A stretch of 64,000 bases of DNA from Dehalococcoidia bacterium (GTDB lineage: Bacteria; Chloroflexota; Dehalococcoidia; Bin125), in contig OZ253504.1 of assembly GCA_965262235.1 (NCBI GenBank), forward strand, positions 785,365-849,364, written 5' to 3'. Every line of letters starts with the position of its first letter. Position 1 is the first letter of the stretch. The notes under the pieces are model-generated. The model ran no database searches. It saw only the letters and a program-made list of their open reading frames with translations, and had not been told where the DNA came from. This document shows, piece by piece, positions 1,005-21,960 of the stretch. Position numbers and translations under genes: made by a program.

Positions 1005-1080
1005 GCCCCTGTAGCTCAACGGATAGAGCGGCGGACTTCTAATCCGCAGGCTGGAGGTTCAAATCCTCCCAGGGGCGCCA
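1005..1080 (+). tRNA. tRNA-Arg(TCT)
   Basis: Acceptor GCCCCTG/CAGGGGC, anticodon arm GCGGA-CTTCTAA-TCCGC, T-loop TTCAAAT, encoded CCA. Confidence 0.95.
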
Positions 1081-1360
1081 CCGCTGATCATTCTTATTCA
1101 GGCCCCCGTAGCGAAGGATCGAGTCGCCGCCCGACTTGTGCAGCTGGTCGCGGCTGCTGGCGCGGCTGTCTGAGGGGACTTCGCGCCCGCCGGGGGGGGG
1201 GACGAACGATCGGGGTCGCAGCCAACTCTAATGCGAAGAAGAACTGCGACGCGGCCTCTCGCTCTCGGTCCTGCCTGTCTATTTCGCGCCTACGGTTCCC
1301 CGCGAGCGGAGGACCGATCGCACCACCGGGCCCCATTCCAAGCCTTCACGTCACGCGTCG

Positions 1361-1389
1361 TTGCACGTCCCAGCGTCTCCGAATATAAT
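1361..1389 (+). promoter_or_regulatory. sigma70-type promoter, probably giving a leaderless transcript
   Basis: TTGCAC (1361-1366), 17-nt spacer, TATAAT (1384-1389); the GTG start at 1396 follows after 6 nt. Confidence 0.75.
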
Positions 1390-1395
1390 GGCTGA

Positions 1396-2823
1396 GTGCC
1401 TACGCTCCTACACATTTCAGACCTGCATCGCACCTCAGGCCCTCGCGTCCGCAACGATGAGTTGTTCGCGGCCATGGCAAGTGACGCCAAGAGGTGGGCG
1501 GATGAAGGAATCCCGCGTCCAGACCTAGTCGTCGTGAGCGGTGACTTAGTGCAAGGGGTGGGACTGGACACTGGTGACCCCGACGCAGAGATCGCTGCCC
1601 AATACGCCGAAGCAGGTGATCTCTTGCACCGGTTGGCGGCCGAATTCGTCAACTCTGACCGCTCGCGTGTGCTCATCGTGCCCGGCAACCACGACGTCCA
1701 TTGGGGGCGCGCCAAGAGCGCGATGGCGCCCCTTCCAGACTGCCCCAGAGGTGTTGCAACACAGGCCTACCAGCCCGACTCGCAAATCCGCTGGAACTGG
1801 GAAGACCAATCAGCGTACAGGATTACGGACCGGCAGAGGTACGGCTCACGTTACGATCACTTCCGTCAGTTTCGGACGGACTTTTACGCTGGGACCGGCC
1901 CCAACCCCCAACTACACCCTGATACGGATTTGATCTTTGCCGAGTACCCGTCGCTTCGCCTGGCAGTTGTCGGGTTCGCTTCGTGGCATGGCAACGATTG
2001 CTTCTGCCATATCGGCGAGATTGACCCCGCGGCGGTCGCCGCATCGCAGCAGTTGCTTTCGGACTCATCGGCCGTGGTATCGGTAGCCATGTGGCATCAC
2101 AGCATCGAGGGCGGCCCTCTCGCGCAGGACTACATGGACCGCCGTGTCGTTCACAGGCTCATCGACTTCGGGTTCAATATCGGGCTCCACGGACATCAGC
2201 ACTATCCCGGTGCCGCACCGTACGACCTTCGCCTCCCAAACCGAACGTCGATGGTCGTGGTTGGTGCGGGCTCGCTTGCCGTCGGGGACTCGGAACTCCC
2301 CGCAGGTGAACGTCGCCAGTTCAACATCGTTCATGTTGACACGACGAAGGGCTCGATCACAGTTCATGTGCGAGCGATGTCGTCCGACGGTGTGTTCACG
2401 GGTTCGCACCGAGATGATTTCGGTGGCAAAACGTCTATCACGCTCGAACTCCCGATCTCAAGCGCCAGTCCTCCAAGACCCACATCAACGAGCTTGCTCG
2501 ACGAGGCAATCGCGGCGGTAGGGCGCCAACACTATGCGAGAGCCCTAGAACTCGTTCACGCCATCGGCGGCTCTTCGCATACGTACGCGAAGCGCCAAAT
2601 CACTATTGAGGCTCTGGGAGGTCTCGGGCACGTTGACGAGCTGCTCCAAGTTCTGACTCCTCCTCAGAACGCGGACGAGGCCATGAGAGCGCTGTCATTG
2701 CTCCTTGCAACCGACCGCTATGACGAATCACTGGCAATGCTTGAAGCCTCAACGGAGTTGCTGGATCCCGGTACTTACAGGGCACTAGCCGAGCAGATAG
2801 CCGTCAGAAAGGCGATCTCATGA
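1396..2823 (+). CDS. Calcineurin-like metallophosphoesterase with C-terminal helical/TPR-like region
   Basis: All five MPE motifs: HISDLH, SGDL, PGNHD, WHH, HGHQH; helical tail of about 110 aa. Confidence 0.85.
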   Translation: MPTLLHISDLHRTSGPRVRNDELFAAMASDAKRWADEGIPRPDLVVVSGDLVQGVGLDTGDPDAEIAAQYAEAGDLLHRLAAEFVNSDRSRVLIVPGNHDVHWGRAKSAMAPLPDCPRGVATQAYQPDSQIRWNWEDQSAYRITDRQRYGSRYDHFRQFRTDFYAGTGPNPQLHPDTDLIFAEYPSLRLAVVGFASWHGNDCFCHIGEIDPAAVAASQQLLSDSSAVVSVAMWHHSIEGGPLAQDYMDRRVVHRLIDFGFNIGLHGHQHYPGAAPYDLRLPNRTSMVVVGAGSLAVGDSELPAGERRQFNIVHVDTTKGSITVHVRAMSSDGVFTGSHRDDFGGKTSITLELPISSASPPRPTSTSLLDEAIAAVGRQHYARALELVHAIGGSSHTYAKRQITIEALGGLGHVDELLQVLTPPQNADEAMRALSLLLATDRYDESLAMLEASTELLDPGTYRALAEQIAVRKAIS

Positions 2824-5126
2824 CGAAAGCTGAGCGGAAGATCGCCTTCAAGGTCGAGTTTTCTCGAATCCTTGAGCTTCTCGCCGATCAGATTTACCAG
2901 TCGCCACTCGCCCTCCTCCGGGAGAACACACAGAATGCATTCGACGCAATTCGCATGCGGGAGGCCGAGGCTCAGCCATTCGAGCCCTCAATAGCAGTGC
3001 AGGTTGACGATGAGCTGATCACGGTCGTGGACAACGGAATCGGGATGACTCCGGAGGAGATCGAAACACACTTCTGGTGGGCGGGTAGGAGCGGGAAGAA
3101 CACAGACGCTGCCCGCGCTGCCGGTGTCGTCGGCACATTTGGCATCGGTGCTCTCGCCAACTTCGGTGTTGCTGACGAGCTTTCAGTCGAAAGCCAGTCA
3201 GCGATCACCGGCGAACGCACCCTCTCAAACGTCCGAAGGTCAGAGTTGTCAACCGAGACTGAGGGAATCTCAGTCATGCCGATTGATCCAACCGAACTCC
3301 CTGGGACCATTGTGCGGGCCCGGCTCAGCGCTGAGCGAAAGATATCGCTCCAGGAGGCAAGGGCATATCTCAAGGAATTCGTGCAGTTCGTGGATGTACC
3401 CGTTTGGTTCAATGGGGAGATGCTCAGCGGTGCTCGACACCGGGATGCGCTCCCCTCCGAGAGACACAAGTGGGCCGAATCCCTCGAAGGCGTGTCGCTA
3501 CCAGGCATCGTCTCAGCTGATCTGGATCTGACGGGAATGGCATCGGGCGAGCTCCGCGTGGTGCTCGAGAACATACGAACAACGATGGGTGTCGGCAGGC
3601 CCGGCTCCATCGTCCTCATCCAAGGGCAAAACGCGATCAGAACCCTACGATCGGGGTTCGGTCTGGCCACCGTCGCCGTGCCGTCTTACTATCAATGGGG
3701 AGGCGTGATTGATCTTCCCTTCCTCAAGCCCACCGCAGGGCGCGAGGCTCTCGACGCCTCTTCGAATCAGCTGCTCCAGCAGATCGTCGCATCCCTCGAC
3801 GAAATAGTCTCGCCGCTCGCGGCGCAGCACCCTGAATCATTTTCCAACGGGAGCGTTCTCCAGTGGATCGCTTCGACGGAGCAATTTCACCTCTGCGGTC
3901 CACTTGAGGTCACGCTTCGTCCCGCGCGAAACGTCGAAACACTTGCATCAGCGGTACAGCGCAGTCACCTTCGATACTACGGCGGAAACGATCAGTCGGT
4001 GATTGACACATACACAAGCGAAGATCAGCCGCTCTTGCTCCTATCTAGGCGCTCGCCGCGTCGTGCCTGTGAACTCGGCTACTTGGTCACAAAGAACATC
4101 GAGCAAGTCGACACCACGCCCCGGGTCAAGGAGGAACTTCCGTTAGGAAGCCAGAGCATCGCTCACACGGCGCTTTCAACCCGGATCACGAGAGTGCTTG
4201 AAGAGGATTATTTCCTCGCGGCCGACATTCGCTACGGTGCATTGACGGGAGGCTTGCCTCTCCTCGTCACTGACAGGGAAACTCCCGTAGTGCTGTACTT
4301 GGACGCGGCGTATCCTGGCGTTGCGACTCTTCTCGCCCTCTATCGCGACGACTTTGTGTCGTTCGGGCCCTTGGTGAAGGACTTTGTGCGTCACTCCGTT
4401 TTCCCGCGCATATCCCACCTTGTGCCTAGCAGTACCAAGGAAGGAGCCGAGGCCTTTTTGCGGCATCTGCGCACGAATCGAGAATGGTTCGAGTACGAGC
4501 TCGACGACAGAGCGGATCTTGAAGAGATTCTCGAGGAGATACGAGCGGGCAGGCTAACACTTGCGGCGGCGACGAGGAAATTGACCGATGCGACCACCTC
4601 TGTGGTTGAGGTCACGCCCGGTGCCCAAGCACCTCTATCAGCAGTCATCGGTGGCATGCCGGAAGAACCCGAGGATGACAGCATGTCCGATCCCCTCGCA
4701 CCGCGCCCAAGTATCGATCGTCGAGACGAAGCTACGAGCGCTCGAATTCTTACGAGTGACGCGTCGGACCTGAACGGCTACACGTGCTTCTTGTCGATTA
4801 GCGATCGGGTCCAGCGCGAAAAGGGAGACTTTTTCTTACAGCCCCATTCAACCGCAATTGTGTGGGGTGGCGGAAAAGTTGTGTTTGTGTTCCAGCACCA
4901 CTCTGGCCAGTTTGGCCTGTACTATGACATCCTCTGTCAGAGTCTTGTCGCGGAAACGGCCGGAGGTGGCCCCACAGTCACATCGACGATACTCACGAAA
5001 GATCGCACATTCATTCCGATACCGGACGAACTTTCCGCCTCGTTTCTCCCTAACCCCGGAGAGACTAAACGCCTCGAAATTAGATGCGATGTCCTGTATC
5101 TGGACGAGCACAAGCGCCCTGCCTGA
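2820..5126 (+). CDS. Hsp90-like GHKL ATPase with an unrecognised ~550-aa C-terminal region
   Basis: FKVEFSRILELL..IY, LRENTQNAFDA, DNGIGMT, GRSGK, GTFGIG, GTIV; ATGA overlap with the upstream gene. Confidence 0.85.
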   Translation: MTKAERKIAFKVEFSRILELLADQIYQSPLALLRENTQNAFDAIRMREAEAQPFEPSIAVQVDDELITVVDNGIGMTPEEIETHFWWAGRSGKNTDAARAAGVVGTFGIGALANFGVADELSVESQSAITGERTLSNVRRSELSTETEGISVMPIDPTELPGTIVRARLSAERKISLQEARAYLKEFVQFVDVPVWFNGEMLSGARHRDALPSERHKWAESLEGVSLPGIVSADLDLTGMASGELRVVLENIRTTMGVGRPGSIVLIQGQNAIRTLRSGFGLATVAVPSYYQWGGVIDLPFLKPTAGREALDASSNQLLQQIVASLDEIVSPLAAQHPESFSNGSVLQWIASTEQFHLCGPLEVTLRPARNVETLASAVQRSHLRYYGGNDQSVIDTYTSEDQPLLLLSRRSPRRACELGYLVTKNIEQVDTTPRVKEELPLGSQSIAHTALSTRITRVLEEDYFLAADIRYGALTGGLPLLVTDRETPVVLYLDAAYPGVATLLALYRDDFVSFGPLVKDFVRHSVFPRISHLVPSSTKEGAEAFLRHLRTNREWFEYELDDRADLEEILEEIRAGRLTLAAATRKLTDATTSVVEVTPGAQAPLSAVIGGMPEEPEDDSMSDPLAPRPSIDRRDEATSARILTSDASDLNGYTCFLSISDRVQREKGDFFLQPHSTAIVWGGGKVVFVFQHHSGQFGLYYDILCQSLVAETAGGGPTVTSTILTKDRTFIPIPDELSASFLPNPGETKRLEIRCDVLYLDEHKRPA

Positions 5127-5432
5127 TCGTCCCGGGACGTTGGCCATTGGTCTACTCCGTGCCACTTGACGCGCCGCGCACCGCAGGAGCGACCCCCCGA
5201 CCGAGGTCGCTCGTCGCGATCTTCGATATCGGCGAGTTCTCGCCGCATCGCGTTGCCCGCGCATGCATGATGGCCGTGGACGCTAGGAAAGGCCCTCGCA
5301 CCAACCCTTGATGGCCCCACAGTTGCCGCTCGAGCGGAAGATCGAGTCTCGCTCACACAGACTGTGCAAGTCGAACGCGGCAAGATGCCCGATCAAGCCG
5401 ACCATGACCGAAACGTCATTCCCCCTACCCCC

Positions 5433-6371
5433 CTACCCACCCACCCAGGCGTCTGCGGCGGAATGCGGGTCCGTTGCGCGATCTGCTACGCGGTGCGTTA
5501 GCTCCTCGAGACGGCCCTCGCCCATCTCGCTGAGTAGACCGGCCAGCACCCGACCCCTTGCCAGCGCGACGATCTGCTGGCGCGCCCGCGCCGCCTCGCT
5601 TGAGGCCATCTTGCCTGTTTCGATCAGGTGCGCGTAATGGGTCTCGCACGCGTCGGCGAGCGCCTCAATCCCATCGCCCTGCGTCGCGATCATCCGCAGC
5701 ACCGGCGGTTCCCAGCTCTGATCGGGCGCCAGCGAGAGCAACGCCTTCAGCGCGCTGACCATCCGGGCGGCGCCCGGCAGGTCAGCCTTGTTCACGCCCA
5801 GCACGTCGGCGATCTCCATGATCCCGGCCTTCAGCGTCTGCACCTCGTCGCCCATGTTCGGCGTGTTGAGCAGCACCGTCGTCTGCGCGGTTGAGGCGAT
5901 CTCGACCTCATCCTGGCCCGCGCCGACCGTCTCAATCAGCACCACATCCTTGCCGAACGCGTCGAACACGTGCACCACATCCTGCGTCGCCGCCGAGAGA
6001 CCGCCCAGCGTGCCGCGGCTGGCCAGGCTGCGAATGAACACGTCCGGGTCCGAGTGCAGCTCCGCCATCCGCACCCGGTCGCCCAGAATCGCCCCCTGCG
6101 TGTACGGGCTGGACGGGTCGACCGCGACGATCCCAATCGTCTGCCCACGCGCGCGGCAGACCTTGGCCAGCTCGTTCGTGACCGTGCTCTTGCCCGCCCC
6201 CGGCGAGCCGGTCAGGCCGATGATCCGTGCCCGCCCGCTGCGTGGATACAGCCGCCGCGACATCTCACGCCCGCGCGCGTCGCCGTTCTCAACCCACGTG
6301 AGCACGCGCGACAGCGCGCGGCGGTCGCCGCCGAGCAGCAGCGACTCGAGCTCGTCGAGCCGCTCGCTCAC
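5433..6371 (-). CDS. meaB: Methylmalonyl-CoA mutase-associated GTPase MeaB
   Basis: [38 protein letters not shown]. Confidence 0.93.
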
Positions 6372-11461: not shown

Positions 11462-11564
11462 GATCGTCCCCCTCCGTGACCCCCAGCGTACCGCGACGCG
11501 GAGCCCGTCCACACCCCACTCACAGAGCCCCGCTCGGGCCCGCGCTCTGGAAGCCCTCGCCCCT

Positions 11565-11690
11565 GGGAGACTTGCGCATAATCTCCATTTCCCCTCTCCC
11601 CCCGCTTGGCGGGGGGAGATGCCGAAGGCAGAGGGGGGCTGCGGTCCCGACTCACCGCCGTGGCTGTATCTGGCCAAGCCGGGGCGAGCG
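11565..11690. repeat. REP/MITE-like element (GNA-hairpin family)
   Basis: GGAGACTTGCGCATAA...CCCCTCTCCCCCGC-TTG-GCGGGGGGAGATGCCGAAGGCAGAGGGGGG; reverse-homologous to 33060-33160. Confidence 0.8.
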
Positions 11691-11893
11691 ACGGATAACC
11701 CGCACAGCACGTTCAGGAAGTTGCTCCATGAGTTGCCCATCGCGTGGACGGCCAACACGTAGAGGCTGCTGGCGTTATCAAGCGGCCGCCAGTTCAGCGA
11801 GTCGCCGTCGAGCCCCTCAAGGCAGCCCACGAACCCGTCGACGCTATTCCTGATCTCCTCCCAGAAGAGCCCAATCTCCCGCGAGCTCTGCAT
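11690..11893 (-). pseudogene. 5' fragment of a DinB/DUF664-like gene truncated by the repeat element
   Basis: LEGLDGDSLNWRP..NASSLYVLAVHAMG runs directly into repeat-derived sequence. Confidence 0.55.
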
Positions 11894-11922
11894 CGTGCCC
11901 CCTACGTGGAATCGAAGCGCCG

Positions 11923-12050
11923 CCAGCCGTGCCGACACTCGACAAGCCCGCCACTCCCTCGGAAGCGACGGAGCGGGACTAGCTCCGGCAACAGGTCCAG
12001 AACGACTCTCAGCGCGTAGCATCGTGAGTTCATCCAAGTGGATTGGGCCT
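11923..12050. repeat. ~125-bp diverged repeat, copy A (copy B at 20342-20468)
   Basis: Identical CCGTGCCGACACTCGACAA followed by near-ungapped similarity. Confidence 0.75.
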
Positions 12051-12442
12051 ACTCACACGAGAGAGGCGCCGGCCTATTCACCATCCTGCTGCGCGGCATA
12101 GCGGCGCACCCGGACGCAGGCTTCTCGACCACAAGGTCGCCTTCGAGTACACTCCACCCAGCCATCCCCGAAGCTGATTGATCATCCCCTACTCCCCACC
12201 CTTCCATCTGAGGCAAGGAAGCCGAGACGATAGAGGTCGACGCGCCCGCGAACGCTCCGACCGAGTCTCTGCGGAACGAGTGCGGGGGACCCCATCGAAA
12301 TCCCCGCCCCTCAAGCCGACCGCGTCCCCCGTCGCGAGTGATCGGATCGACGCGCCGGGCTACACGGAACGAAACCCGTCGTGACTCGGCTGGAATGAAG
12401 AGAGACTCAGGAGCTCCCGAGTGCACCACAGCTCCGATCGTC

Positions 12443-12655
12443 CTACCGCCTTTCGTATTGGTAGACTCCCTTGATGTTCTCATTAAGGTATGTCCCGGGG
12501 GACGGTGCGGCCAGAAACTCGCCAAACACCCAATCATCAACATCGAAGTACACATACTGCCCGGAGCGCAGGAACCACACATGGAGTTCACGCGTGGACG
12601 ATTCATACCCTATTGCCTCAACGTTGCTCGAATCTACATAGTGCATCTCAGGCAT
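12443..12655 (-). CDS. KTSC-domain protein
   Basis: VDSSNVEAIGY..L.VWF..G.YVYFDV....F..FLAAPSPGTYLNENIK; 8-nt overlap with the herA stop. Confidence 0.85.
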   Translation of the reverse strand: MPEMHYVDSSNVEAIGYESSTRELHVWFLRSGQYVYFDVDDWVFGEFLAAPSPGTYLNENIKGVYQYERR

Positions 12656-14516
12656 CTCGACTATCGCCGTTCCCCATAGGTCTGTTCGGGGCCCGCATGG
12701 TGGATTGTGCGCGCCAGTTCGAAAGTGCAACCGCATAGCCAGCGATATCCGGTCTCGGCTCCGCAAGCCATACATCGGGGAGCTTCGGATCATCTCCGAC
12801 AGGTTTCTCACGAGCCTTTCGCACCCTGACACGCGTCGGGATCGGCATCATCTCACCGAGGCATATGCCCTCACCCGTCCGCAAGGACGGTAAGAGGTCC
12901 ACAAGTCCTCCTAGATCATCGGGTACCATGGATGCAACCTTTCCGCGATCGGACGAGTTAGTAAGTCGCATCGCGATCAGCGATCCGCACTGGCTCAGCA
13001 CGGTGCTGTCAAGCTCGGATGGGCGCTGCGATACGAGGACGAGCCCCACACCATACTTGCGGCCTTCCTTCGCGATCATTGAGAGAGTGCGGTGAGCTGA
13101 AGTGCTATCGCCCTCTGGAACAAACAGGTGGGCTTCGTCGATGACGATCAGTAACGGCTGCTGCCGGCCGCCAATTGGAAGTTCCTGACCCCAAAGCAAC
13201 GTATCGTAGATCACGCGTAGCACGGTGCCAACGACGGTCGGCAATATCTCCGATGGAAGCGACGATACATCGAACACGGAGACTGGTCGCTCCTGCCCAA
13301 CCCATTCGGCGACGAGGGTATCCAGATCCGAGTCGACTTCCCCATCTATCGATGGATTGAATCCGCCGCCTGGGCAGAAGAGGAACGCGAAACGGGAGTC
13401 CCGCAATCGGCTCGCCATTAGGTCGAGGTGTCGCTCGATATTTCTCTTCCGTTGATTCTTGTACGGAGCTTGATTGTACGGGCTCGCGGCCGGGAACTTC
13501 GCAGGCCTGAGCGCATCAGCATCACCAAGGTCCTCGGGTGCACATTCATCCTCAATGGTTTGCTGATTCCCCGACTTGTTGAATGTCACGCGTTCGAATC
13601 GGTCCAGCTCGTGCCACAGCTTCTTGATGCTGAACGGGATCGGGGAATCCGCGTTCAGAGTTTCCGGCCGGGGGGCATTCTCCAAGCGCTCCGACGCGAG
13701 AGACTTCATCCGTAGAATCTCATCTCTGATCGCGGATTCCTGTTGTTGCTGAAGTCCGCCCAGGGTCAGTTCTCGCAATTCGTCGAACGGCAGGGCCCAA
13801 AACGGGACCCACAGCGGCTTCTCACCGGCCGCGGTGTTCGGGGACACCCTGAACACGGTCGAACGATCGCCTAGCGAGGATCCGTACTCCCCATGCGGGT
13901 CTATCACGATGACACGGGCCTTCGGGAAGGTGCCATCGGACACTGCCTCCAGCAAGACGGTCACCAGATTGGATTTCCCAGCACCAGTCGAGCCGACAAC
14001 TGCACAATGGCGACTGACGAGACCCGCCACGCTTAGCTCCGCGGGCAGTCCCGCGGTCGCCGCTATCTTGCCGATGGGGACCGTCCCAGTGGTCATCTTC
14101 GCCCAGCCATAGATCGTCTCCAGATCAGCATTCGTGACCAGATGGACTTCATCGCCGACCGTGGGATATTCGCCGACCCCTCGTTCGAACTGGCCGGCAA
14201 CGCCCTCACCGAACAAGACAGCCGTCATCCAGCGATATCCAGAAAGCGCTTGTCCGTCATCATCCTCGAGGCTCCTACTCGCCTGTGTGTCACTTCGCGA
14301 TGGCGGCGCTGCATCCGCACCCACCTGCGTGCATACTGCATAGAGGTTTGCATACCCGAGGGGTATTCGGAGGAACGCACCCAGCTGACCCACGCGATAC
14401 GATTCACCCTCGATCATGACGAGTGTCGACAAAATGTCACCCCGCAGACGGACTCGCACGACACCTCCAGCTACGGAAACAACTTGTCCGATGAGCGTGG
14501 GAGGAACATATGCCAT
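12648..14516 (-). CDS. herA: HerA/DUF87 ATPase of a Sir2-HerA anti-phage system
   Basis: HAS-barrel-like N-terminus, GSTGAGKS, DPHGEY, IVIDEAH, KEGRKYG, SQRPSE. Confidence 0.9.
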   Translation of the reverse strand: MAYVPPTLIGQVVSVAGGVVRVRLRGDILSTLVMIEGESYRVGQLGAFLRIPLGYANLYAVCTQVGADAAPPSRSDTQASRSLEDDDGQALSGYRWMTAVLFGEGVAGQFERGVGEYPTVGDEVHLVTNADLETIYGWAKMTTGTVPIGKIAATAGLPAELSVAGLVSRHCAVVGSTGAGKSNLVTVLLEAVSDGTFPKARVIVIDPHGEYGSSLGDRSTVFRVSPNTAAGEKPLWVPFWALPFDELRELTLGGLQQQQESAIRDEILRMKSLASERLENAPRPETLNADSPIPFSIKKLWHELDRFERVTFNKSGNQQTIEDECAPEDLGDADALRPAKFPAASPYNQAPYKNQRKRNIERHLDLMASRLRDSRFAFLFCPGGGFNPSIDGEVDSDLDTLVAEWVGQERPVSVFDVSSLPSEILPTVVGTVLRVIYDTLLWGQELPIGGRQQPLLIVIDEAHLFVPEGDSTSAHRTLSMIAKEGRKYGVGLVLVSQRPSELDSTVLSQCGSLIAMRLTNSSDRGKVASMVPDDLGGLVDLLPSLRTGEGICLGEMMPIPTRVRVRKAREKPVGDDPKLPDVWLAEPRPDIAGYAVALSNWRAQSTMRAPNRPMGNGDSRDA

Positions 14517-14523
14517 GATCGGC

Positions 14524-15732
14524 TCAGATTGCTACCATCGAGGCCAAAAAGTCACAGAAACAAGAAAAGTCGCCGATCGTCATCACAACCTGCGGCGAGT
14601 ATGACCTCTCATGCTGTTGAACTGCCGAATCATCGCGCGGTCGGGCCCCGAAAGTGCCGTCCAGATAGTTTCCCCATTCCGCCCTTCGTCCACCGATGAT
14701 TCCTGTGTTAGGACCGATGACCACAATGTTATGTCCGATAAGACTCCGTGCCACCAGATCCGAGTTGTTGGTCTCTTCGCTATACTGGAGAGCGTACACA
14801 TGAGTTCTCGGACGGTTCTCTAGCGCCTCGAAGATCACGGTGTTGATGTGTTCGTCTCCGAATCCGAATCCAGCGACCACCAGCAACGCGTCGTCTTGCT
14901 CCAAAAATCGCGCCAGTCGGTCCACGAACGCCGCGTACGGCTGCTGGCGGGATTCATCGTACTTCTGAAAGGAGGGCAGGATCATCTCGCCAGCTTCGCT
15001 CGGCTCCCCTCGGACCACTCGCACCCGACCATCGACCTCCGCCTTCCGCCAAGTCACTGAGCCATGCATTTTCCAAAGCCTGGTCCAGTTGATACCCGGA
15101 GCGGAATCCGCGCGGCGAACGCTATCGGCATGGAAGAACGGTTGGTAACTTCCCACGAAGCCGTCGAACACGGGAACGCGCTCCGCCTCAAGAGCTAGCT
15201 CGAATAGAATATCGTAGTTGACGGTGAAGATCTCGATTGGGTGCTGGCGAGTGACTCGGGTAAGCCATTGTGCGAAACGTCGGTGCGGCAGCGCGTCGAG
15301 AACATGCTCGGTCGGGGGGTTGACCGCTTTCGCGATCTCCTTGCGCACGGTTTCCTCGAGCTTGATCAGGTCAGCTTTCGGCAGACCAGCGAGCGTGTCT
15401 GATTCTCCGATCGCCTCTAGCATCATGCGCAATCGGGAAAGGACATCCTCGATATTGGGATTTGGTTTACCCCGTTCACATTCCGTGAGGATGTGCTCCC
15501 AAGCACTCGCGTAGCTCTCGCCCATCGCAACCGCCGCCGTCGCACAACATTGCGTCAACCCGACCACGTCCGGAATCAGAGAGCTCGCCTCCGCGTCGTC
15601 CTGTGCTGAGGCCACTTTGACTGCACACGACGTGCCCGCACCAAACAGAAACGCGATCGGTTTGTCGTGCCGTGCTAGGTGATCGCGCAGATCCCCTAGC
15701 AACTTCTCTGCATCGTGTGTTGCATTATCCAC
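14524..15732 (-). CDS. SIR2-family (SIR2_2) putative NADase
   Basis: FLFGAGTS, TVNYD, KMHGSV, GFGFGDEHIN; 7 nt upstream of herA. Confidence 0.88.
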   Translation of the reverse strand: MDNATHDAEKLLGDLRDHLARHDKPIAFLFGAGTSCAVKVASAQDDAEASSLIPDVVGLTQCCATAAVAMGESYASAWEHILTECERGKPNPNIEDVLSRLRMMLEAIGESDTLAGLPKADLIKLEETVRKEIAKAVNPPTEHVLDALPHRRFAQWLTRVTRQHPIEIFTVNYDILFELALEAERVPVFDGFVGSYQPFFHADSVRRADSAPGINWTRLWKMHGSVTWRKAEVDGRVRVVRGEPSEAGEMILPSFQKYDESRQQPYAAFVDRLARFLEQDDALLVVAGFGFGDEHINTVIFEALENRPRTHVYALQYSEETNNSDLVARSLIGHNIVVIGPNTGIIGGRRAEWGNYLDGTFGARPRDDSAVQQHERSYSPQVVMTIGDFSCFCDFLASMVAI

Positions 15733-15797
15733 GCTGCCAGACTACCGTTGCTCGCCCGATGCTTGCATTTCGCGTATGAACGATGCAAACGGAGGGC

Positions 15798-15874
15798 TGG
15801 TGGACAACGGAGGACTCGGCCCCCCGACCTCCCGGGTGTAAACCGGGCGCTCTAGCCACCTGAGCTACTCACCC
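15798..15874 (-). pseudogene. Degenerate copy of tRNA-Val(TAC)
   Basis: Full-length homolog of 21961-22037; T-loop TTC changed to GCC; acceptor stem has three G-U pairs and a G-G mismatch. Confidence 0.85.
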
Positions 15875-15895
15875 CGACTCACGCTGGCACAGCGC

Positions 15896-16045
15896 TCAGC
15901 TCGATCTCCGCGCGCCTTCCAGATCATCCGCCGCCGCGCCGTCTAGCAGTTGTCGTGCTGCGTCCAGCCCGCTCGGATCAGCCCCCTCCACCGCCTCACA
16001 ATCCTTCGCCCCCGCGTTCGGGATCGACCTCAGCCACGCCGCAAC
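15896..16045 (-). pseudogene. Diverged duplicate of the 3' end of the TlpA-like gene
   Basis: AAWLRSI..AGA...EAVEGADP..LDAARQLLD...DDLE...RSS* matches 22059-22225 with an 18-nt deletion. Confidence 0.85.
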
Positions 16046-16296
16046 CCCAGAATCCCTGAAGCGGCGCAGCCCCCCACTGTCCCAGTCCCAATGGGTGGAT
16101 CCCCAAACAGGGCGGTCGGCGCTGATCTTGGACCGCGCCGGCGAGGGCGACGCAATCCGGGCGCTGGTTGAAGGCTTCTTCCGTCGGATCACCCCCCCGA
16201 CAAGCTGGACCCGGCTTCGCCCCTCCTCACCCCCGCCGCCCCTGTCCTCGACGCCGATTGACTACCCTGACCGGGCCCTAATAGATGAGGACTTCC

Positions 16297-17811
16297 ATGT
16301 ACGACGACATCGTCATCGGTGCGGGTTCGGCTGGAGCGGTCATTGCCGCACGACTCTCTGAAGATCCCGAGCGCCAGGTGCTGCTGATCGAGGCCGGCCC
16401 CGACTACAGCCGGATCGAAGATCTGCCGGACGATCTGGTCAAGCCCTGGATCTCGTGGGTGGACCACGACTGGGGCTTCAGGGGCACTGCACGCCAGGGC
16501 CGCGATTTTCCCATGTACCGCGGCAAGGTCATGGGCGGCACCTCCGCCATCAATGGCGCGATCGCGCTGCGAGGCGTGCCCGCTGACTTCGACGCCTGGG
16601 TCGAACTCGGCTGTGATCAGTGGTCGTACGAAGACGTGCTGCCCTGGTACCGCAAGCTCGAGTCCGATCCCGAGGGCGGCGACTTCCACGGCACGAACGG
16701 CCCCGTCCCGATTGAGCGCAGCCCCAAAGATGCCTGGCAGCCGACCCACCGCGCCTTCTACGACGCCTGCCGCGAGCAAGGCTTCGACGATGTCTGGGAT
16801 CACAATCGCCCCGAAGCGACCGGCGTCGGTCCGTGGCCACGCAACAAACGCGACGGCCTGCGCATCTCGACCAACATCGCCTACCTGATGAACATCCGCG
16901 ACCGGAAGAATCTGACCATCCGTCACGGCGTGATGGTCGACCGCGTGCGGCTGGAGCACGGTCGCGCCACGGGTGTCGTGCTCGCCGATGGAAGCGTGGT
17001 CGAAGCGCGCCGGGTCTGTGTCAGTGCAGGCGCCATCGTGACGCCGGCGATCCTGCTTCGCTCGGGTATCGGGCCGGCCGAGAAACTCGCACCGCACGGC
17101 ATCGAGCAACTCAACGCGCTTCCGGGCGTCGGCGAGAACCTCACCGACCACGTCGCGATCGGCGTCGGGGCAAATGCGAAACCCGGCGTCACCCACGACT
17201 CCGACGTCGTCTTCGAGGTCGGCCTGCGCTACACCGTGCCCGGCAGCGACCTGTTCAACGACATGCAGATCGGTCTCTGGACGACCTGGGACCGGGAGCA
17301 CGTGCGAGGATTCGAAAACGCGCCTGGCACAGTGCCGAACATCAATTGTTTCGCGATGCTGGAGCGGCCGTACTCGCGAGGTTCGCTCAGGCTGCGCTCC
17401 GCTGATCCCGCCGAGCAGCCCCAGATCGAAATGAACTACGCCAGCCATCCCGAAGACCTGCGCCGGCTGATGCAGGCGGCGCGGCTCTCTTGGGAGATCC
17501 TCAACAGCGAACCGTTCCGGCCCTATGTCGAAGAGGTCATCACGCCTCACCCTGAGGTGTTCGAGTCGGACCGGGCCCTGGCCGACTACGTCCTGGCAGC
17601 GCTATCGACGACGTGGCACATCACCGGAACCGCGCGCATGGGACAGGCTACCGATCCGCTGGCGGTCACGGATCAACAGGGACGTGTCCACGGAGTGGAC
17701 GGCCTTCGGGTGGCCGACACAAGCCTGCAACCGGACATCGTGAGTTGCAACACCAACCTGACCAGCATCATGTGCGGCGAACGGATCTCCGATTTCATGC
17801 GCTCGGAGTGA
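16297..17811 (+). CDS. GMC-family oxidoreductase (choline dehydrogenase-like)
   Basis: GAGSAG, RGKVMGGTSAING, LLRSGIG, VGENLTDH, WHITGTARMG, CNTN. Confidence 0.9.
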   Translation: MYDDIVIGAGSAGAVIAARLSEDPERQVLLIEAGPDYSRIEDLPDDLVKPWISWVDHDWGFRGTARQGRDFPMYRGKVMGGTSAINGAIALRGVPADFDAWVELGCDQWSYEDVLPWYRKLESDPEGGDFHGTNGPVPIERSPKDAWQPTHRAFYDACREQGFDDVWDHNRPEATGVGPWPRNKRDGLRISTNIAYLMNIRDRKNLTIRHGVMVDRVRLEHGRATGVVLADGSVVEARRVCVSAGAIVTPAILLRSGIGPAEKLAPHGIEQLNALPGVGENLTDHVAIGVGANAKPGVTHDSDVVFEVGLRYTVPGSDLFNDMQIGLWTTWDREHVRGFENAPGTVPNINCFAMLERPYSRGSLRLRSADPAEQPQIEMNYASHPEDLRRLMQAARLSWEILNSEPFRPYVEEVITPHPEVFESDRALADYVLAALSTTWHITGTARMGQATDPLAVTDQQGRVHGVDGLRVADTSLQPDIVSCNTNLTSIMCGERISDFMRSE

Positions 17812-17840
17812 TTCAGCTCGACTCTCCCGCTCCCCCTTGC

Positions 17841-17940
17841 AGGAGACCTGCGCGTAATCCCCATTTCCCCTCTCCCCCCGCTCGGCGGGGGGAGATGCCG
17901 CAGCCTGCCCCTGCGCAGGCAGGGGGCAGAGGGGGGCTCC
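17841..17940. repeat. REP/MITE-like element with a nested palindrome in its loop
   Basis: Same family as 11565 and 38069; extra CCTGCCCCTGCGCAGGCAGGGG inside the GCCGCAGGC hairpin. Confidence 0.75.
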
Positions 17941-18061
17941 GGGCGTCCCGCCTCCCATCACACAGCCAGAATGGCTCCGTTCTACCTCTTCATCACCGAA
18001 TCTGGACGGGCCCCAGGGCCCGTTCACACTACGAGGTCGGGTCGTCGCCAGCTCCAGATAT

Positions 18062-18392
18062 TCCGTCATTCCTGCGCCCCTCCAGTCATTCCTGCGCCCC
18101 TCCCGTCATCCCTGCGCCCCTCCCGTCATTCCTGCGCCCTCCCGTCATTCCTGCGCCCCTCCCGTCATTCCTGCGCCCCTCCCGTCATTCCTGCGCCCCT
18201 CCCGTCATTCCCGCGCCCCTCCCGTCATTCCTGCGCCCCTCCCGTCATTCCTGCGCAGGCAGGAATCCAGGCGACCGCCCAACCCTCGCCACGGCACCGG
18301 GCTCGCGACGGCCTCGCCGGCATTCGCCCACGCGCCGTCGAACATTCGAGGCCAAACACTCCCATCGTTCGCCTGGCTTCCTGCCTGCGCAG
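18062..18392. repeat. Nine 19-20-bp tandem units CCCGTCATTCCTGCGCCCCT ending in a complete GTCATTCCTGCGCAGGCAGGAATCC palindrome, with an inverted partner at 18372-18392
   Basis: Read directly from the sequence. Confidence 0.9.
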
Positions 18393-18473
18393 CGCCTGCC
18401 CCTGACTTGAACAGGCAAGTGACGAGCTTGGCGTTGAGCACAATGCCATCCCACCGCTCAGTGTGAACAGGCC

Positions 18474-18806
18474 CTACTCCGAGCCTTGCACGGCGGGCAC
18501 CGGCACCTCAATCTCCAGCAGCGGCGCGTACTGCTGACCACCGAAGCAGTCGCTGTCACCGAGGTCGCCTGAAGCGATCGGCCTGGGGAATGAGAACTTG
18601 ATCGCCAGCGCATTGTCGCAGTTGAAGAAGAGCACGTCCGCCTCGTTCTGCTGATACATCTCCGCCACCAGCTTCTTGTTCAGCACCCCCGAGTCGCGGA
18701 CCTGTTCGTACACCTCGGCGTCATCGAACATGATGTCGAAGGTGAGCACGAACGGTCCGGCGTTCTTGCTGCGCACCAGCTTGGTGACTTCCCAGAGCTT
18801 TGCCAT
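18474..18806 (-). CDS. DUF4387-family protein
   Basis: VRSKNAGPFVLTFDIMF ... AIKFSFPRP..SG...D.D.FGGQQYAPLL. Confidence 0.85.
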   Translation of the reverse strand: MAKLWEVTKLVRSKNAGPFVLTFDIMFDDAEVYEQVRDSGVLNKKLVAEMYQQNEADVLFFNCDNALAIKFSFPRPIASGDLGDSDCFGGQQYAPLLEIEVPVPAVQGSE

Positions 18807-18815
18807 GACGCGCCT

Positions 18816-20186
18816 CTAGACCCTCGCCATCTCAATCGGGAACATCTCGTAGGGATCAGCAGGTTCGACCACGTGGTTCAGGTTGAACCGGTGAGTCGCG
18901 CCCCGGTGCAGTACTGCGGGGCTGTAGGGGAACGCCAGGACGCTGATCAGGCCGTGCCATTCGGGCACCGGAAAATGCAGCGCCAAGTGATGAGCGACTT
19001 CGGCAAGTTCTCCGGCCAGGTCCGGGTCCGAAGCGGTCACCTCGATGATCAGACACACCTCGTGGGCAGGCGTCGTCACCGGCTCCAGCGCGCCCATCGT
19101 TCCGTCTCGACCGTAGACGCGGAAGAAGACCGAGTAGTCCTCGTCCATCTCCAGGCCGTCGAACGCATCCCTGATCCGCAGGGCCAATCGCTCCTTCATC
19201 CGGCCGAGCCAGTCGTCGAGTTGGCGGATGATGATCGGGTCTCTGATCGCTCCGATGATGATGCTCTGGTAGCCCGCCAGTTCAGCTCCTTCGAGCTTCA
19301 CGGTGTAGCGCTCCGCCGGAACCCAGCGGCTGTTGGAGACCTTGACGGCCCGGTCCGAGACAGCCTCATACACCGAATCGGTGGTGTCCAGCATCCCCGA
19401 CGATTCGTACAGGTGGAAGGGATCGGCGTTCTCATACAGCGTGTGAGAGGCGACGCTCTGCGGCGTGCACCAGAGTTCCTCGGCCGGCGGTTCGACGATG
19501 AAGTGGTCGTTCCGGACGGTGGCGAACATGCAATCGGGCGACTTCCTCAGCGCCACGGACGCGGCTCCGCACTCCAGGATCTTTGCTGCGTGCCAGACCG
19601 GACCTTCAGCGAATCCCCGCGCCAGTGGCATGGCGGCAAAGAGCGTGGTGTCGCTGGCTCGTCCGCCGACGATCACCTCGGCGCCGTCATCCAGGGCCTT
19701 TGCGATCGGCTCGGCGCCCATCATGCCGACGATGTGCAGGCTCTGGTCGATCACCGCTTCGTCCAGATGCGGCGCCGGCTTTAGCGGCGTGATCTTACCC
19801 GCTCTGAATTTGGACTTCAGGTACTCCCGGTCCTGCTCCGAGCGGATCACCGCGAGCTTGAACTGCAGTTCCTCTTCCCTGGCGACCTCTTCGACGATTT
19901 CCACCGTCCACTGGACATTCAGGTCCCCGCCGGCCGACCCGGCCGAGCCGATGATCACCGGAATGCCCGCCGCTCGCCCGGCCTGGAGGATCAGCCGGAT
20001 GTCCCGTTTGACCGCGGTCCGGGGAAAGTTGCTCCTCCCGGTGGCGAGCGCGTCCGGTCCGCCATCGGTGGTGCCCGCGTCGGCTGCGATGAAGTGCGGC
20101 TCCCATTCCATCGCCCGCTTCAACGACGCTTCCAGGAACCCAGATCCGACCATCCCCGTCGCCGAAAGCGCTCTAATCTCATCCAC
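18816..20186 (-). CDS. AtuA/DUF1446-family protein
   Basis: DAGTTDGGP, GSAGSAG, GGRASD, WHAAKILECG, HTLYENADP; GTG start 20186; paired with DUF4387. Confidence 0.8.
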   Translation of the reverse strand: MDEIRALSATGMVGSGFLEASLKRAMEWEPHFIAADAGTTDGGPDALATGRSNFPRTAVKRDIRLILQAGRAAGIPVIIGSAGSAGGDLNVQWTVEIVEEVAREEELQFKLAVIRSEQDREYLKSKFRAGKITPLKPAPHLDEAVIDQSLHIVGMMGAEPIAKALDDGAEVIVGGRASDTTLFAAMPLARGFAEGPVWHAAKILECGAASVALRKSPDCMFATVRNDHFIVEPPAEELWCTPQSVASHTLYENADPFHLYESSGMLDTTDSVYEAVSDRAVKVSNSRWVPAERYTVKLEGAELAGYQSIIIGAIRDPIIIRQLDDWLGRMKERLALRIRDAFDGLEMDEDYSVFFRVYGRDGTMGALEPVTTPAHEVCLIIEVTASDPDLAGELAEVAHHLALHFPVPEWHGLISVLAFPYSPAVLHRGATHRFNLNHVVEPADPYEMFPIEMARV

Positions 20187-20293
20187 AACGAGTCTCCCGA
20201 ATCCCCAATCCTCGAAGTCCCGCCGCAGCCCCTCCGACGCGCGATTTGCGCCGCAGCATACCTGGCCGGGTGCTGAAAAAGTCATCGCGCCCA

Positions 20294-20342
20294 GCCCCCC
20301 CCTCTCTGCGGGGGGAGATGTCCCGTAGGGACAGAGGGGGGC
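20294..20342. repeat. REP-like element (GNA-hairpin family)
   Basis: GCGGGGGGAGATGTCCCGTAGGGACAGAGGGGGG. Confidence 0.75.
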
Positions 20343-20468
20343 AACCGTGCCGACACTCGACAACCCCGTCACGCCCCCGGAGTCGACCGGACGGGATTGG
20401 CTCCCGCAACAGGCCCAGACCGAGCCTAAACGCGAAGGACCTTGATGTTGTCCAGCTTGGCGGACCTA
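20342..20468. repeat. ~125-bp diverged repeat, copy B
   Basis: Homologous to 11923-12050. Confidence 0.75.
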
Positions 20469-20532
20469 GCGAGCCCATCCTGCGCGGTTTCCGCTGGCCG
20501 GTCGCCATCCGAGATAGCGCGGCCGGGCGCGC

Positions 20533-21915
20533 CTACCTGTTGCCGTGTGGAATGGGTGGGGTCTGATCGTCAGGCCGGAACATCCAGCCCTGTACGGTTC
20601 CTAAGTTCTCCTGGTAGCTCGGAGCACGCAGAACTGCCCAACTCGCCGCTATCGACGTGAGCAACTCGCTCGGTTCGAATCCGAGCAGCGAAAGCGCGCT
20701 AGTGTGCCCAGTTCCGGCGTGATTACGCAGATCTTCGCCCCCGGAACCGGGACCGTCGCCGTCGACAAGCATGCCGTCGAGCCGATTAAGGAGCTCAGTT
20801 GCCAAGGCATATCTCTCGGGTGCTTCTCTCGCTTCCGGGTGCTTTCCCTGTACATTCCGTTCCAGCAGGCTGGCAACGTGGGATACCAACGCTAGCCGGT
20901 GCATGAATGGGGATTCGTAATCGGGGCACATTGCGCACATCTCGGGCTCGAACTTCGCTGCGGGTAGTGGCGTCTCATCGGGGCCTATGATGTGTTGTAG
21001 TGTGCTATGCACGGGCTCGAACCAGGAATCCAACTCGTGGTCATCCCATCCCATGAGGGATGAGTAGGCATGTAGCGTCTTCATATAGACCGACAATCCA
21101 ATGTCCAGAACGGTCAACGCCCTCTTAAGGAGGACTTCCGGTTCCTCCGAAATCGAAAACGCCATCAGGAAGGGCTGCGAATGGGTGGCGCCACTCAGCA
21201 CGCTGTACACGTCTTTCCAGTAAACCGGTTCACCCTGGCCTGCCAAGACGACTGCCTCTTTGTGACCGGGGATTTCAGAAATCCAACGGCTACGATTGAT
21301 GGACTTACCGTTCTGGCACTTCCAACCCTGGGCGATAGCCCACTGTAATGCCGTGTCTCTCACTTCCAGGCATGTCTCCCTCACGGCCGGATCGACCGTC
21401 ATGAAGCGACGGTACGAGCCTTGATCGTCTGGGAGTACGTTTAATATCTCGTGGCAGCCTCGCACGAGCATCTGGTTTGTGCGGCGAAGGCGGGTGTCAA
21501 GATCGAGACCGGGTTCAACCAACCAATAGCACGCCGCTGAAGCTTCGATCAGGGACCGTGTCAACGCCAACGAGGACCACCGGGCGTCCGGGCCAGTGTT
21601 CAAGGCGGCGTTCGTGGCTGCTTTCAGGTATTCGACGCCACTGTTGAGGAAACTCCTCGCAAAGTTGGTTGTGTATGTGAGCGTGGTCTTGTGATCGCCC
21701 AACGCCGCGTAGTCGGTCTCACATGCCCTTTCATGCAGCGAGAAGACGGAGCCAACTTCGGCCTCGCGATGGAAGTGGTGGAAGGAGTTCCAGACCAGGT
21801 CAAGGGCACGATTGAGGGCTGTCTGGAGCGTGATCTCCTGCAAGACATCCACCATGGAAGAACGGCTGGACACACGCACTCGTATCGGTTCGGCTGCACG
21901 GTCATCGGAGGGCAT
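20533..21915 (-). CDS. Hypothetical protein, DUF5677/HEPN-like helical domain plus C-terminal extension
   Basis: LTRSLIEASAACYWL and VYSVLSGATHS motifs; visibly lower GC; directly downstream of tRNA-Val; start uncertain. Confidence 0.55.
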   Translation of the reverse strand: MPSDDRAAEPIRVRVSSRSSMVDVLQEITLQTALNRALDLVWNSFHHFHREAEVGSVFSLHERACETDYAALGDHKTTLTYTTNFARSFLNSGVEYLKAATNAALNTGPDARWSSLALTRSLIEASAACYWLVEPGLDLDTRLRRTNQMLVRGCHEILNVLPDDQGSYRRFMTVDPAVRETCLEVRDTALQWAIAQGWKCQNGKSINRSRWISEIPGHKEAVVLAGQGEPVYWKDVYSVLSGATHSQPFLMAFSISEEPEVLLKRALTVLDIGLSVYMKTLHAYSSLMGWDDHELDSWFEPVHSTLQHIIGPDETPLPAAKFEPEMCAMCPDYESPFMHRLALVSHVASLLERNVQGKHPEAREAPERYALATELLNRLDGMLVDGDGPGSGGEDLRNHAGTGHTSALSLLGFEPSELLTSIAASWAVLRAPSYQENLGTVQGWMFRPDDQTPPIPHGNR

Positions 21916-21960
21916 GGCGGAACCTCTCGGTCGACGGCAGCCTCGCGTGTGCCGCAGTTC

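Follow-up and report, generated by a model that had tools for sequence, protein, structure and literature searches.

What is encoded by two overlapping genes that lie between a tRNA-Arg(TCT) gene and meaB in the genome of a Dehalococcoidia bacterium, in DNA of lower G+C content (GC) than its flanks? The window, by which we mean the whole stretch of 64,000 nucleotides (nt) analysed here (contig OZ253504.1, positions 785,365 to 849,364), holds two open reading frames (ORFs) on the same strand at this place: gene 1 (1396..2823, +, 475 amino acids (aa), GTG start) and gene 2 (2820..5126, +, 768 aa, ATG start), whose stop and start codons overlap as ATGA. The initial annotation of the window had described them as a new conflict system, a calcineurin-like phosphoesterase with a TPR tail coupled to an Hsp90-like ATPase, and our ORF calls, the ARAGORN tRNA prediction and the Pfam MeaB match confirm the arrangement as given. 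The evidence supports the reading as a conflict system. We believe that the pair is probably a self-contained, mobile module, most likely directed against phages, in which an Hsp90 paralogue would serve as sensor and switch for a nucleotide-degrading phosphoesterase tethered to it by a helical tail.

Pairing and mobility of the two genes

An exhaustive HMMER search for gene 2 returned 156 representatives at E <= 1e-30, of which about 45 are full-length, with identities of 24-63%. The best 150 relatives are no longer than 813 aa, and the closest 120 clusters are all about 770 aa long, at least 66% identical and mostly from metagenome assemblies. The product names in the database records seen are simply “ATP-binding protein” for gene 2 and “metallophosphoesterase” for gene 1.

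The two genes travel together almost without exception, as the initial annotation had expected of their homologues. Of 25 genome loci (L006-L030, from one-genome-per-species contigs, gene 2 copies 57-71% identical), 24 have a homologue of gene 1 immediately upstream of gene 2, with the 4-nt start/stop overlap in 20 of those 24 by our own start calls. The remaining locus, L026, is a decayed copy in which gene 1 is missing and gene 2 is matched in three pieces (L026:8001-10290). A second decayed copy, L030, has a Mutator-family transposase between the two genes, and its gene 1 ends early (L030:6539-7861); the pairs of L007 and L025 are cut by contig ends, and gene 1 of L024 is split. No further gene is conserved around the pair among the genome loci compared. 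More divergent copies follow the same pattern: 70 of the 72 metagenome loci with at least 600 nt upstream (80 loci in all, 33-52% identical), all three IMG/VR loci with room, and both plasmid loci inspected (one from Pseudomonas aeruginosa, pPUV-9, and one from Rhizobium) have gene 1 upstream. The divergence of gene 1 from the window copy is correlated with that of gene 2 (Pearson 0.98 over 82 loci), although the loci are not independent because they are related.

No HATPase domain is fused to any of 16 longer gene 1 relatives. In one protein, P0193, the C-terminal part of gene 1 is followed by the N and M domains of gene 2; we rejected it as a true fusion and read it as a frameshifted or read-through fragment, because it begins within the enzyme domain, breaks off within gene 2 and has junk-like sequence where the two parts meet.

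The distribution is patchy. Gene 2 is present in none of eight genomes of the same genus. Of 401 genomes sampled from the phylum, 4 contain full-length copies and 67 others contain HtpG-like frames of about 633 aa that match the gene 2 profile over positions 2-235, the N domain, only. At the same time, copies are found in metagenome-assembled genomes (MAGs) of at least seven phyla, labelled as Acidimicrobiia, Dehalococcoidia and other Chloroflexota, Latescibacterota, Acidobacteriota, Gemmatimonadota, and Alpha- and Gammaproteobacteria. In a quick tree, the copies group by phylum only partly, with short branches between phyla, and the GC of the pair is below that of the outer flanks in 20 of 21 loci, as it is in the window. 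Full-length relatives of gene 2 are also found on four conjugative megaplasmids, three of P. aeruginosa and one of Rhizobium; in pPUV-9 (L160, NZ_MT732187.1 420627-424396), a conjugative IncP megaplasmid, the pair is 33% identical to that of the window, and two sister plasmids carry it too. A divergent pair adjoins smpB in genome G280. These observations support the view that the pair is obligate and moves horizontally.

MAGs make up many of the 25 genome records, and a sponge-linked taxon (Candidatus Poriferisocius) is named in at least one title. Going by such titles, the cassette may be passed around in microbial communities of a single kind.

Folds of the two proteins and the effector swap

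The two proteins divide into the following parts, with coordinates in the window:

1396..2466, + strand: gene 1 residues 1-357, metallophosphoesterase (calcineurin-like fold) catalytic domain, putative nucleotide-targeting effector, from the Pfam match, the metal ligands and the fold
2485..2823, + strand: gene 1 residues 364-475 and stop, seven-helix tail, putative adaptor docking on gene 2, from the AlphaFold2 model
2820..3464, + strand: gene 2 residues 1-215, Hsp90-type GHKL ATPase domain, from Pfam, NCBIfam, a PDB profile and structural matches (Z 15-19.5)
3465..4109, + strand: gene 2 residues 216-430, Hsp90-like middle domain with the A306-G307-R308 loop, from TRAP1 structures
4110..4439, + strand: gene 2 residues 431-540, domain resembling the Hsp90 C-terminal (dimerisation) domain, from full-length Hsp90 alignments and 8oxu_A
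4440..4601, + strand: gene 2 residues 541-594, low-confidence segment followed by two predicted helices, from the AlphaFold2 model
4602..5126, + strand: gene 2 residues 595-768 and stop, family-specific beta-rich C-terminal domain, putative sensor, from the secondary structure of the model

Pfam Metallophos covers residues 3-271 of gene 1 (E 7.2e-13), and the protein has all the metal-ligand motifs that the calcineurin-like superfamily carries on its alpha/beta sandwich (DxH, GD, GNH[DE], H and GHxH). The metal site, complete as first described, is formed by D9, H11, D50, N98, H99, H234, H265 and H267, all invariant in 20 aligned homologues. In the AlphaFold2 model (mean predicted local distance difference test score, pLDDT, 79.8), the catalytic sandwich spans residues 1-357 and is followed by seven helices at 364-474, the tail block having a pLDDT of about 77-88 over residues 361-400 and of 93-95 from residue 401. 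The helical tail of the initial annotation is thus present in the model, but its assignment to the TPR family is not significant (Pfam TPR_12, E 0.27). The best structural match is Bacillus subtilis YydB (Z 24.5, root-mean-square deviation (rmsd) 3.6, 298 residues aligned), followed by SMPDL3A (Z 20.4), Rv0805 (Z 20.2), and Lmo2642 and GpdQ (Z about 20); Mre11 structures score lower, at Z 16-17. By its predicted fold, gene 1 is therefore nearest to the YydB/SMPDL3A/Rv0805 enzymes and not to the PP5-type (PPP) phosphatases.

One further motif of gene 1, GNDCFC (residues 199-204; 1990-2007 in the window), is invariant in the 20 homologues. Its two cysteines lie in a low-confidence loop (pLDDT below 50 at 202-206), outside the standard metal-ligand motifs, and it may be a regulatory or redox element.

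The phosphoesterase belongs to a kind recurrent among immune effectors, as had been claimed. The NCBIfam model DS9_1, for the anti-phage phosphoesterase DS-9A, matches gene 1 with E 9.6e-11 and 41 bits (cut-off 420), over the phosphoesterase part (model positions 195-484 of 486), and the DS-8 model with 23 bits (cut-off 790); because these scores fall far under the family cut-offs, gene 1 is not an orthologue of either. In the 16 longer relatives, taken from a collection of 5.8 billion proteins, the same domain is fused to NACHT with HEAT repeats or an FGE-sulfatase domain, to a Ras/Roc GTPase with WD40 repeats, to HAD and TPR, or to TPR alone. Judged by these partners, the domain appears to take the effector position of sensor-type immune architectures.

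Gene 2 begins with an intact Hsp90 N domain, again as first described. Pfam HATPase_c_3 matches its N-terminus, and a profile of 55 sequences finds the N domains of Hsp90, TRAP1, GRP94 and HtpG in the PDB at about E 1e-23. The Hsp90-type motifs E...N, DxGxG and GxxGxG are all present, and their residues E35, N39, D71, G73, G75, G105, G108 and G110 are invariant in the 55 sequences. The NCBIfam HSP90/HtpG models match over their first 200-220 or so positions, with scores far under the equivalog cut-offs (61.2 bits against 371 for PRK05218, 96.3 against 455 for PRK14083), so by sequence gene 2 is not a full-length HtpG. Past profile position 236, the 55-sequence profile has no match among PDB sequences.

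The initial annotation had found no likeness to the middle and C-terminal domains of HtpG in the rest of the protein. This stands for the sequence but not for the predicted structure (mean pLDDT 85.3), in which residues 1-540 align to the N, middle (M) and C domains of Hsp90. The best match is HSP90-beta (8eob_B; Z 24.8, rmsd 7.2, 468 residues aligned, model 4-534 to chain 11-671), and TRAP1, HtpG, GRP94 and Hsc82 chains follow at Z 23-24.6, with the Hsp90-PP5 entry 8gae also among the Hsp90 matches. Structures of TRAP1 N+M align to model residues 1-431/433 (Z 23-24), full-length Hsp90 alignments reach model residues 534-547, equivalent to chain residues 671-689, and the isolated Hsp90 C domain 8oxu_A aligns over 441-534 (Z 7.5). 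Matches to GyrB/ParE, MutL and MORC2 (Z 14-20) end at about residue 350; beyond residue 430 only chains of the Hsp90 family align, and they do so through the C domain. Within the M domain, A306, G307 and R308 are invariant in the 55 sequences, and we take the R308 loop to be the counterpart of the one carrying the catalytic arginine of the Hsp90 middle domain. Since the model aligns to Hsp90 N+M+C, gene 2 is best described as a whole Hsp90 paralogue with an extra domain, and not as an N domain on an unrelated body, the M and C assignments being those of the predicted structure.

Between the Hsp90 part and the extra domain, the model has a pLDDT below 50 at residues 544-565 and helices at 564-575 and 581-589, followed by a sequence-variable, partly acidic stretch at about 600-630. 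The beta-rich C-terminal domain is itself conserved (mean column identity 49% in 41 sequences), with F83, F84, H88, W94, Y113 and Y114 among the conserved positions of its alignment A6. A profile of these 41 sequences gave a chance match only against PDB sequences (E 1.5), a protein atlas feature search with residues 595-768 was uninformative (best score 0.76), and Foldseek and wider PDB searches with the whole gene 2 model returned GHKL/Hsp90 chains only, none of which covers 595-768. As these structure searches were made with the whole model, we do not read the missing match as a new fold. The last eight or so residues of gene 2 vary among 24 homologues and form no conserved docking peptide. 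More distant relatives, such as P0218, P0225 and P0231, align over their first 340-515 residues only, and their C-terminal ends may differ.

Phages carry Hsp90-like ATPase domains of their own. Two Klebsiella phage records have a match of about 31-32% identity to the ATPase domain of gene 2, OX335406.1, which has no annotation, and PP738785.1, in which the matching product is annotated as “RIIA lysis inhibitor”, and the protein atlas holds a mostly viral HATPase_c_3 cluster of 668 aa. No full-length relative of gene 2 was found in 50,697 phage records.

In one variant the effector has been exchanged. At L118 (L118:1321-2700), the gene upstream of gene 2 encodes a 459-aa protein that has no similarity to phosphoesterases, matches no Pfam family and has strongly hydrophobic, membrane-type stretches at residues 22-77 and 225-260. 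Its last 100 or so residues nevertheless align to the gene 1 tail (376-473 to 355-454; hhalign probability 63%, E 7e-5). The membrane variant (P0288) has three clusters of relatives, two of which (270 and 277 aa) correspond to the N-terminal membrane part without the tail. Since the tail is kept where the enzyme domain is replaced, we regard it as a module in its own right, which accompanies the Hsp90-like partner.

Complex prediction agrees with this, at modest strength. The tail (residues 352-475) and gene 2 gave an ipSAE score of 0.60 (0.58-0.61 over the runs, the best of three controls reaching 0.00), which lies in the weak band of our calibration: 58 of 80 solved complexes and 2 of 110 mismatched pairs reach the mark, and both passing mismatches, together with 7 of the 80 solved complexes, score at or below 0.60. 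The runs agree in at least 63% of the contacts, and the pLDDT of the partners is at least 82; the prediction listed no interface. The models thus lend weak support to binding of the tail to gene 2, and the helical tail of gene 1 plausibly docks on the Hsp90-like protein.

The tRNA-Arg/meaB hotspot and other neighbours

The locus around the pair comprises:

1005..1080, + strand: tRNA-Arg(TCT), from ARAGORN; the variable hotspot has its left edge at the 3' end of this gene
1086..5372, no strand: variable low-GC insert, the cargo of the tRNA-Arg/meaB hotspot, from the comparison with genomes G003 and G004 and the GC profile
1361..1389, + strand: promoter-like element TTGCAC, 17-nt spacer, TATAAT, read by eye, ending 6 nt before the GTG start of gene 1
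5433..6371, - strand: meaB, a housekeeping gene and the conserved right flank of the hotspot (Pfam MeaB, E 2.6e-87)

The flanks in G003 and G004 are 93-94% identical to the window up to positions 1081-1085 and again from 5373-5433 (G003 has 94% nucleotide identity from 5433), while their interiors, about 3.66 kb of low-GC DNA, are unrelated to the window insert and to each other. In G003 the cargo (L041:1988-4475) encodes a ThiF/E1-like protein of 524 aa (PADLOC E1-E2, E 1.3e-16) and a 315-aa protein of unknown type with a weak PDC-S31 match; in G004 (L042:1993-4725) it encodes a 910-aa NB-ARC/NACHT STAND NTPase. As different cargo lies between the same flanks, the site is a hotspot with at least three alternative cargos, two of them with immune-type domains, in line with the defence hotspot first suggested from the tRNA 3' end. 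The cargo genes of G003 and G004 are themselves candidate defence genes.

The insert also stands out by composition. Its GC is 0.57-0.61 over 1501-5250, against 0.69-0.73 upstream and 0.66-0.72 downstream, and the GC at third codon positions (GC3) is 0.67 in gene 1 and 0.65 in gene 2, against 0.88 in both flanking genes, which confirms the difference initially noted. No att-like duplication of the tRNA 3' end was found at the far edge of the insert, where only short repeats at chance level occur; the best direct repeat is 16 nt at 88% (1110-1125 and 5333-5348). A scan of the locus found no terminator-like site.

A near-consensus promoter had also been proposed for the pair. Its -10 hexamer is a perfect TATAAT (1384-1389), but the -35 hexamer TTGCAC (1361-1366), at a spacing of 17 nt, matches the consensus at three of six positions only, and a consensus promoter scan of the insert therefore flagged no site. 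With the GTG start only 6 nt after the -10, the gene 1 transcript is probably leaderless. A TANNNT hexamer stands at the same distance from the start in four Acidimicrobiia copies (L006, L009, L013 and L028), and one Dehalococcoidia copy has AGGAGG in its place; we therefore take the window gene to be leaderless and adapted to its host. In Actinomycetota, transcripts without a leader are common.

Around homologous pairs, defence-type genes are frequent. Type ISP or IIG restriction-modification enzymes occur near the pair in L017, L018, L019 and L022, and an HmaA-like SNF2+NOV_C helicase with a DUF1156 protein in L010; genes of L014 are assigned to the same type by clustering with those of L010 alone. 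Single neighbours include a BsuBI/PstI endonuclease (L020), GmrSD with Schlafen (L016), a SIR2-like protein (L027), a C5 methylase (L009) and a NACHT protein of 1873 aa (L023), and in L006 a P4-type integrase lies directly upstream. When 183 flanking ORFs were tallied, methylases, restriction enzymes, AbiEii, AAA_21/AAA_15 ATPases, SMODS domains, transposases and recombinases proved numerous, and in pPUV-9 an annotated ABC three-component system with a DUF3732 protein is 3 kb from the pair.

Elsewhere in the window (11500-22100), tRNA-Val(TAC) occurs twice on the minus strand (15798-15874 and 21961-22037). The two copies share the tRNA body and about 38 nt of upstream leader and have diverged downstream, and low-GC stretches adjoin them (0.59 at 12-16 kb, 0.61 at 20-22 kb). 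The arrangement resembles another case of island insertion, or of duplication, at tRNA genes.

Mechanism, alternatives and relation to known systems

In the mechanism that we propose, gene 2 would have kept the ATP-driven N-M-C clamp of Hsp90 and, with its gained beta-rich C-terminal domain, would act as an NTP-dependent sensor and switch. Gene 1 would be the effector, a dinuclear metallophosphoesterase of the nucleotide-phosphodiesterase type (Calcineurin-CE-like), tethered by its C-terminal helical tail to the Hsp90-like protein and held inactive there. An infection signal, sensed by the extra domain or by the clamp, would shift the conformation of the ATPase and free the phosphoesterase, which would then degrade free nucleotides (deoxynucleoside or nucleoside triphosphates, NAD+ or signalling nucleotides) and halt phage replication, probably at a cost to the cell. 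Control of a phosphoesterase by an Hsp90-like sensor, as initially suggested, is consistent with the obligate, mobile pair and with the weakly predicted complex. What the analysis establishes is the gene structure, the intact catalytic motifs, the folds, the obligate pairing, the mobility, the hotspot context and the effector swap; that the two proteins bind each other, what triggers the release, which substrate is cleaved and that the pair confers defence at all, we infer.

Several observations weigh against this mechanism. The nucleotide substrate is taken from the fold neighbours of gene 1 only. The effector swap comes from one independent locus, because the only other instance, L119, is 99.8% identical to L118, and the tail similarity in the swapped variant is as modest as the hhalign probability given above; the complex score is in the weak band. 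The domain at residues 595-768, of unassigned fold and ligand, is conserved, unlike the fast-evolving sensor ends described for the class. Defence genes do lie near the homologues, but housekeeping genes (aconitase, tRNA synthetases, ABC transporters) are neighbours in several loci too, and the neighbour lists and tallies, having no background rate, are context and not enrichment. Finally, no model in PADLOC-DB v2 or NCBIfam r20 covers the pair, all NCBIfam matches being far under cut-offs, and no experimental test of such a pair was found in full-text searches of the accessible literature, in which the study of Nicastro et al. 2023 is represented by a preprint that cites it.

One alternative is a DNA-targeting, restriction-like module, in which an Mre11/SbcD-like nuclease would work with a GHKL ATP-driven DNA clamp, as proposed for MORC/paraMORC in restriction contexts. 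Mre11 is indeed among the fold matches of gene 1 (Z 16-17), the N and transducer parts of gene 2 resemble GyrB/ParE, MutL and MORC2 (Z 17-20), and restriction-modification genes are frequent neighbours. We consider this reading unlikely, as YydB, SMPDL3A, Rv0805, Lmo2642 and GpdQ outscore Mre11 (Z 20-24.5), only Hsp90 family chains align past residue 430 of gene 2, and the nearest longer relatives of gene 1 are STAND/GTPase effector architectures and not partners of SbcC/Rad50. It is very unlikely, in our view, that the pair is instead counter-defence or signalling cargo of mobile elements, with a phosphodiesterase that removes immune second messengers or sets cyclic nucleoside monophosphate levels under an Hsp90-like chaperone or regulator. 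Two of the fold neighbours, Rv0805 and Lmo2642, are entered as structures of phosphodiesterases and have cyclic-nucleotide activity. The pair rides islands, conjugative megaplasmids and a few IMG/VR contigs; SMODS domains occur in 2 of 88 flanking ORFs; and SMPDL3A cleaves cyclic GMP-AMP (cGAMP) (PMC13092281). For an enzyme that simply degrades a signal, however, a 768-aa ATPase with an extra domain would be a heavy partner; the other cargos of the hotspot are immune proteins of the sensor type, and the replacement of the enzyme by a membrane domain, with tail and ATPase retained, fits an effector slot better than a specific phosphodiesterase.

The complete Hsp90 fold of gene 2 (Z 24.8), together with the helical tail of gene 1 and its weakly predicted binding, would also suit a pair with an ordinary role in proteostasis or signalling, in which a specialised chaperone of the HtpG type would work with a protein phosphatase directed at clients, by analogy with Hsp90-PP5. 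PP5 is a TPR phosphatase that docks on the conserved MEEVD end of Hsp90. No MEEVD end is present in gene 2, whose C-terminus varies and has no conserved docking peptide; the helical module of gene 1 is C-terminal and not significantly TPR, and the best folds of gene 1 are not PPP-like. The analogy first drawn with PP5 and Hsp90 is therefore not supported as homology, and the likeness is functional only: a metallophosphoesterase-fold enzyme with a helical module possibly docking on an Hsp90-fold ATPase. The patchy spread (0 of 8 congeners, 4 of 401 genomes of the phylum), the foreign composition, the cargo swaps at the hotspot and the fact that the true HtpG of other genomes (67 of 401) matches the N domain only make this reading highly improbable. 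Returning to the conflict module, we note that the same comparison separates gene 2 from Hsp90, HtpG and TRAP1 themselves: residues 1-540 share their N, M and C fold and the intact ATP-binding motifs, but the sequence similarity is confined to the N domain, some 230 residues are added at the C-terminus, and the gene is accessory, mobile and paired with an effector gene.

How far the pair is new is a matter of degree. In their abstract, Nicastro et al. 2023 reportedly describe modules related to HSP90 and HSP70 as the counterparts of STAND and GTPase domains coupled to effectors of this sort. As related in the relevant part of the Tiamat preprint, that study predicted Hsp90-like proteins coupled to calcineurin-like phosphoesterase or HD effectors, and the preprint's own account has the C-terminal domains of such systems sense infection and activate a nucleotide-hydrolysing effector (10.64898/2026.09.30.754977). 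As far as this account goes, the likeness lies in an Hsp90-type ATPase coupled to a calcineurin-like phosphoesterase, with an extra C-terminal region and a conflict context. The differences are that their effector is fused at the N-terminus, whereas here it is a separate, translationally coupled protein with a tail of its own, and that their C-terminal domains are modular and fast-evolving, whereas here the domain is conserved throughout the clade. The claim that the pair belongs to no named system thus holds in that no PADLOC or NCBIfam model covers it (in PADLOC-DB v2, gene 1 matches PDC-S60 only, E 6.8e-7 over the first 100 residues, and gene 2 has REase_II ATPase-domain matches), but not in its kind, which Nicastro et al. 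2023, according to the preprint, had predicted. The two-gene split form with an adaptor tail looks like a new variant of that kind, from which it differs in this form and tail, in the conserved extra domain, the natural effector swap, the three-cargo hotspot and the cross-phylum spread; the operonic form may be listed in Nicastro et al. 2023 or its supplements.

Other defence systems share single features with the pair. In the parts of the source concerned with them, the metallophosphatase catalytic residues are required for defence by DS-8 and DS-9 (PMC13092281), and in Escherichia coli PUA-Cal-HAD, as far as described there, the Calcineurin-CE enzyme turns deoxynucleoside diphosphates (dNDP) into monophosphates (dNMP) and can cleave NAD+ (PMC12871103). 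We take PUA-Cal-HAD to be the same system as DS-9. Both it and DS-8 (metallophosphatase-NACHT) have a metallophosphoesterase of the same broad kind as catalytic effector, and the NACHT fusion of DS-8 recurs in some gene 1 relatives; their PUA sensor, HAD partner and NACHT domain have no equivalent in the pair, where the regulator is an Hsp90 paralogue. Tiamat (TmtA) and MORC/paraMORC, as partially documented, likewise have an N-terminal GHKL ATPase in a large defence-associated protein, with effector modules swapped among relatives. Gene 2 differs from TmtA in having neither a PADLOC TmtA match nor the DUF3684/NOV_C nuclease, and from MORC in that its fold past the ATPase follows Hsp90.

A more far-reaching reading, which we put forward tentatively and regard as possible but doubtful, is that the Hsp90 paralogue is a stand-alone immune switch with a socket for plug-in effectors. 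Unrelated effectors, a nucleotide phosphodiesterase or a membrane-inserting protein, would share the docking helical tail, the beta-rich domain would read the infection signal, and the whole would be a chaperone-derived counterpart of STAND/NLR proteins, spreading as a two-gene cassette over at least seven phyla and conjugative megaplasmids.

As far as we found, the role of an Hsp90 paralogue as sensor and switch of prokaryotic immunity is a matter of comparative genomics alone. The family described here is a compact, well-conserved two-gene test case, with intact active sites, clear tail boundaries and a natural effector swap, and homologues occur in culturable hosts (on plasmids of Pseudomonas and Rhizobium). 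If the pair protects against phage, a new NTPase class would join the sensors of the STAND, GTPase and ABC/SMC classes, metallophosphoesterase effectors that deplete nucleotides could be approached from a second side, and the pair would have a bearing on the way in which immune receptors came to be connected with chaperone machinery.

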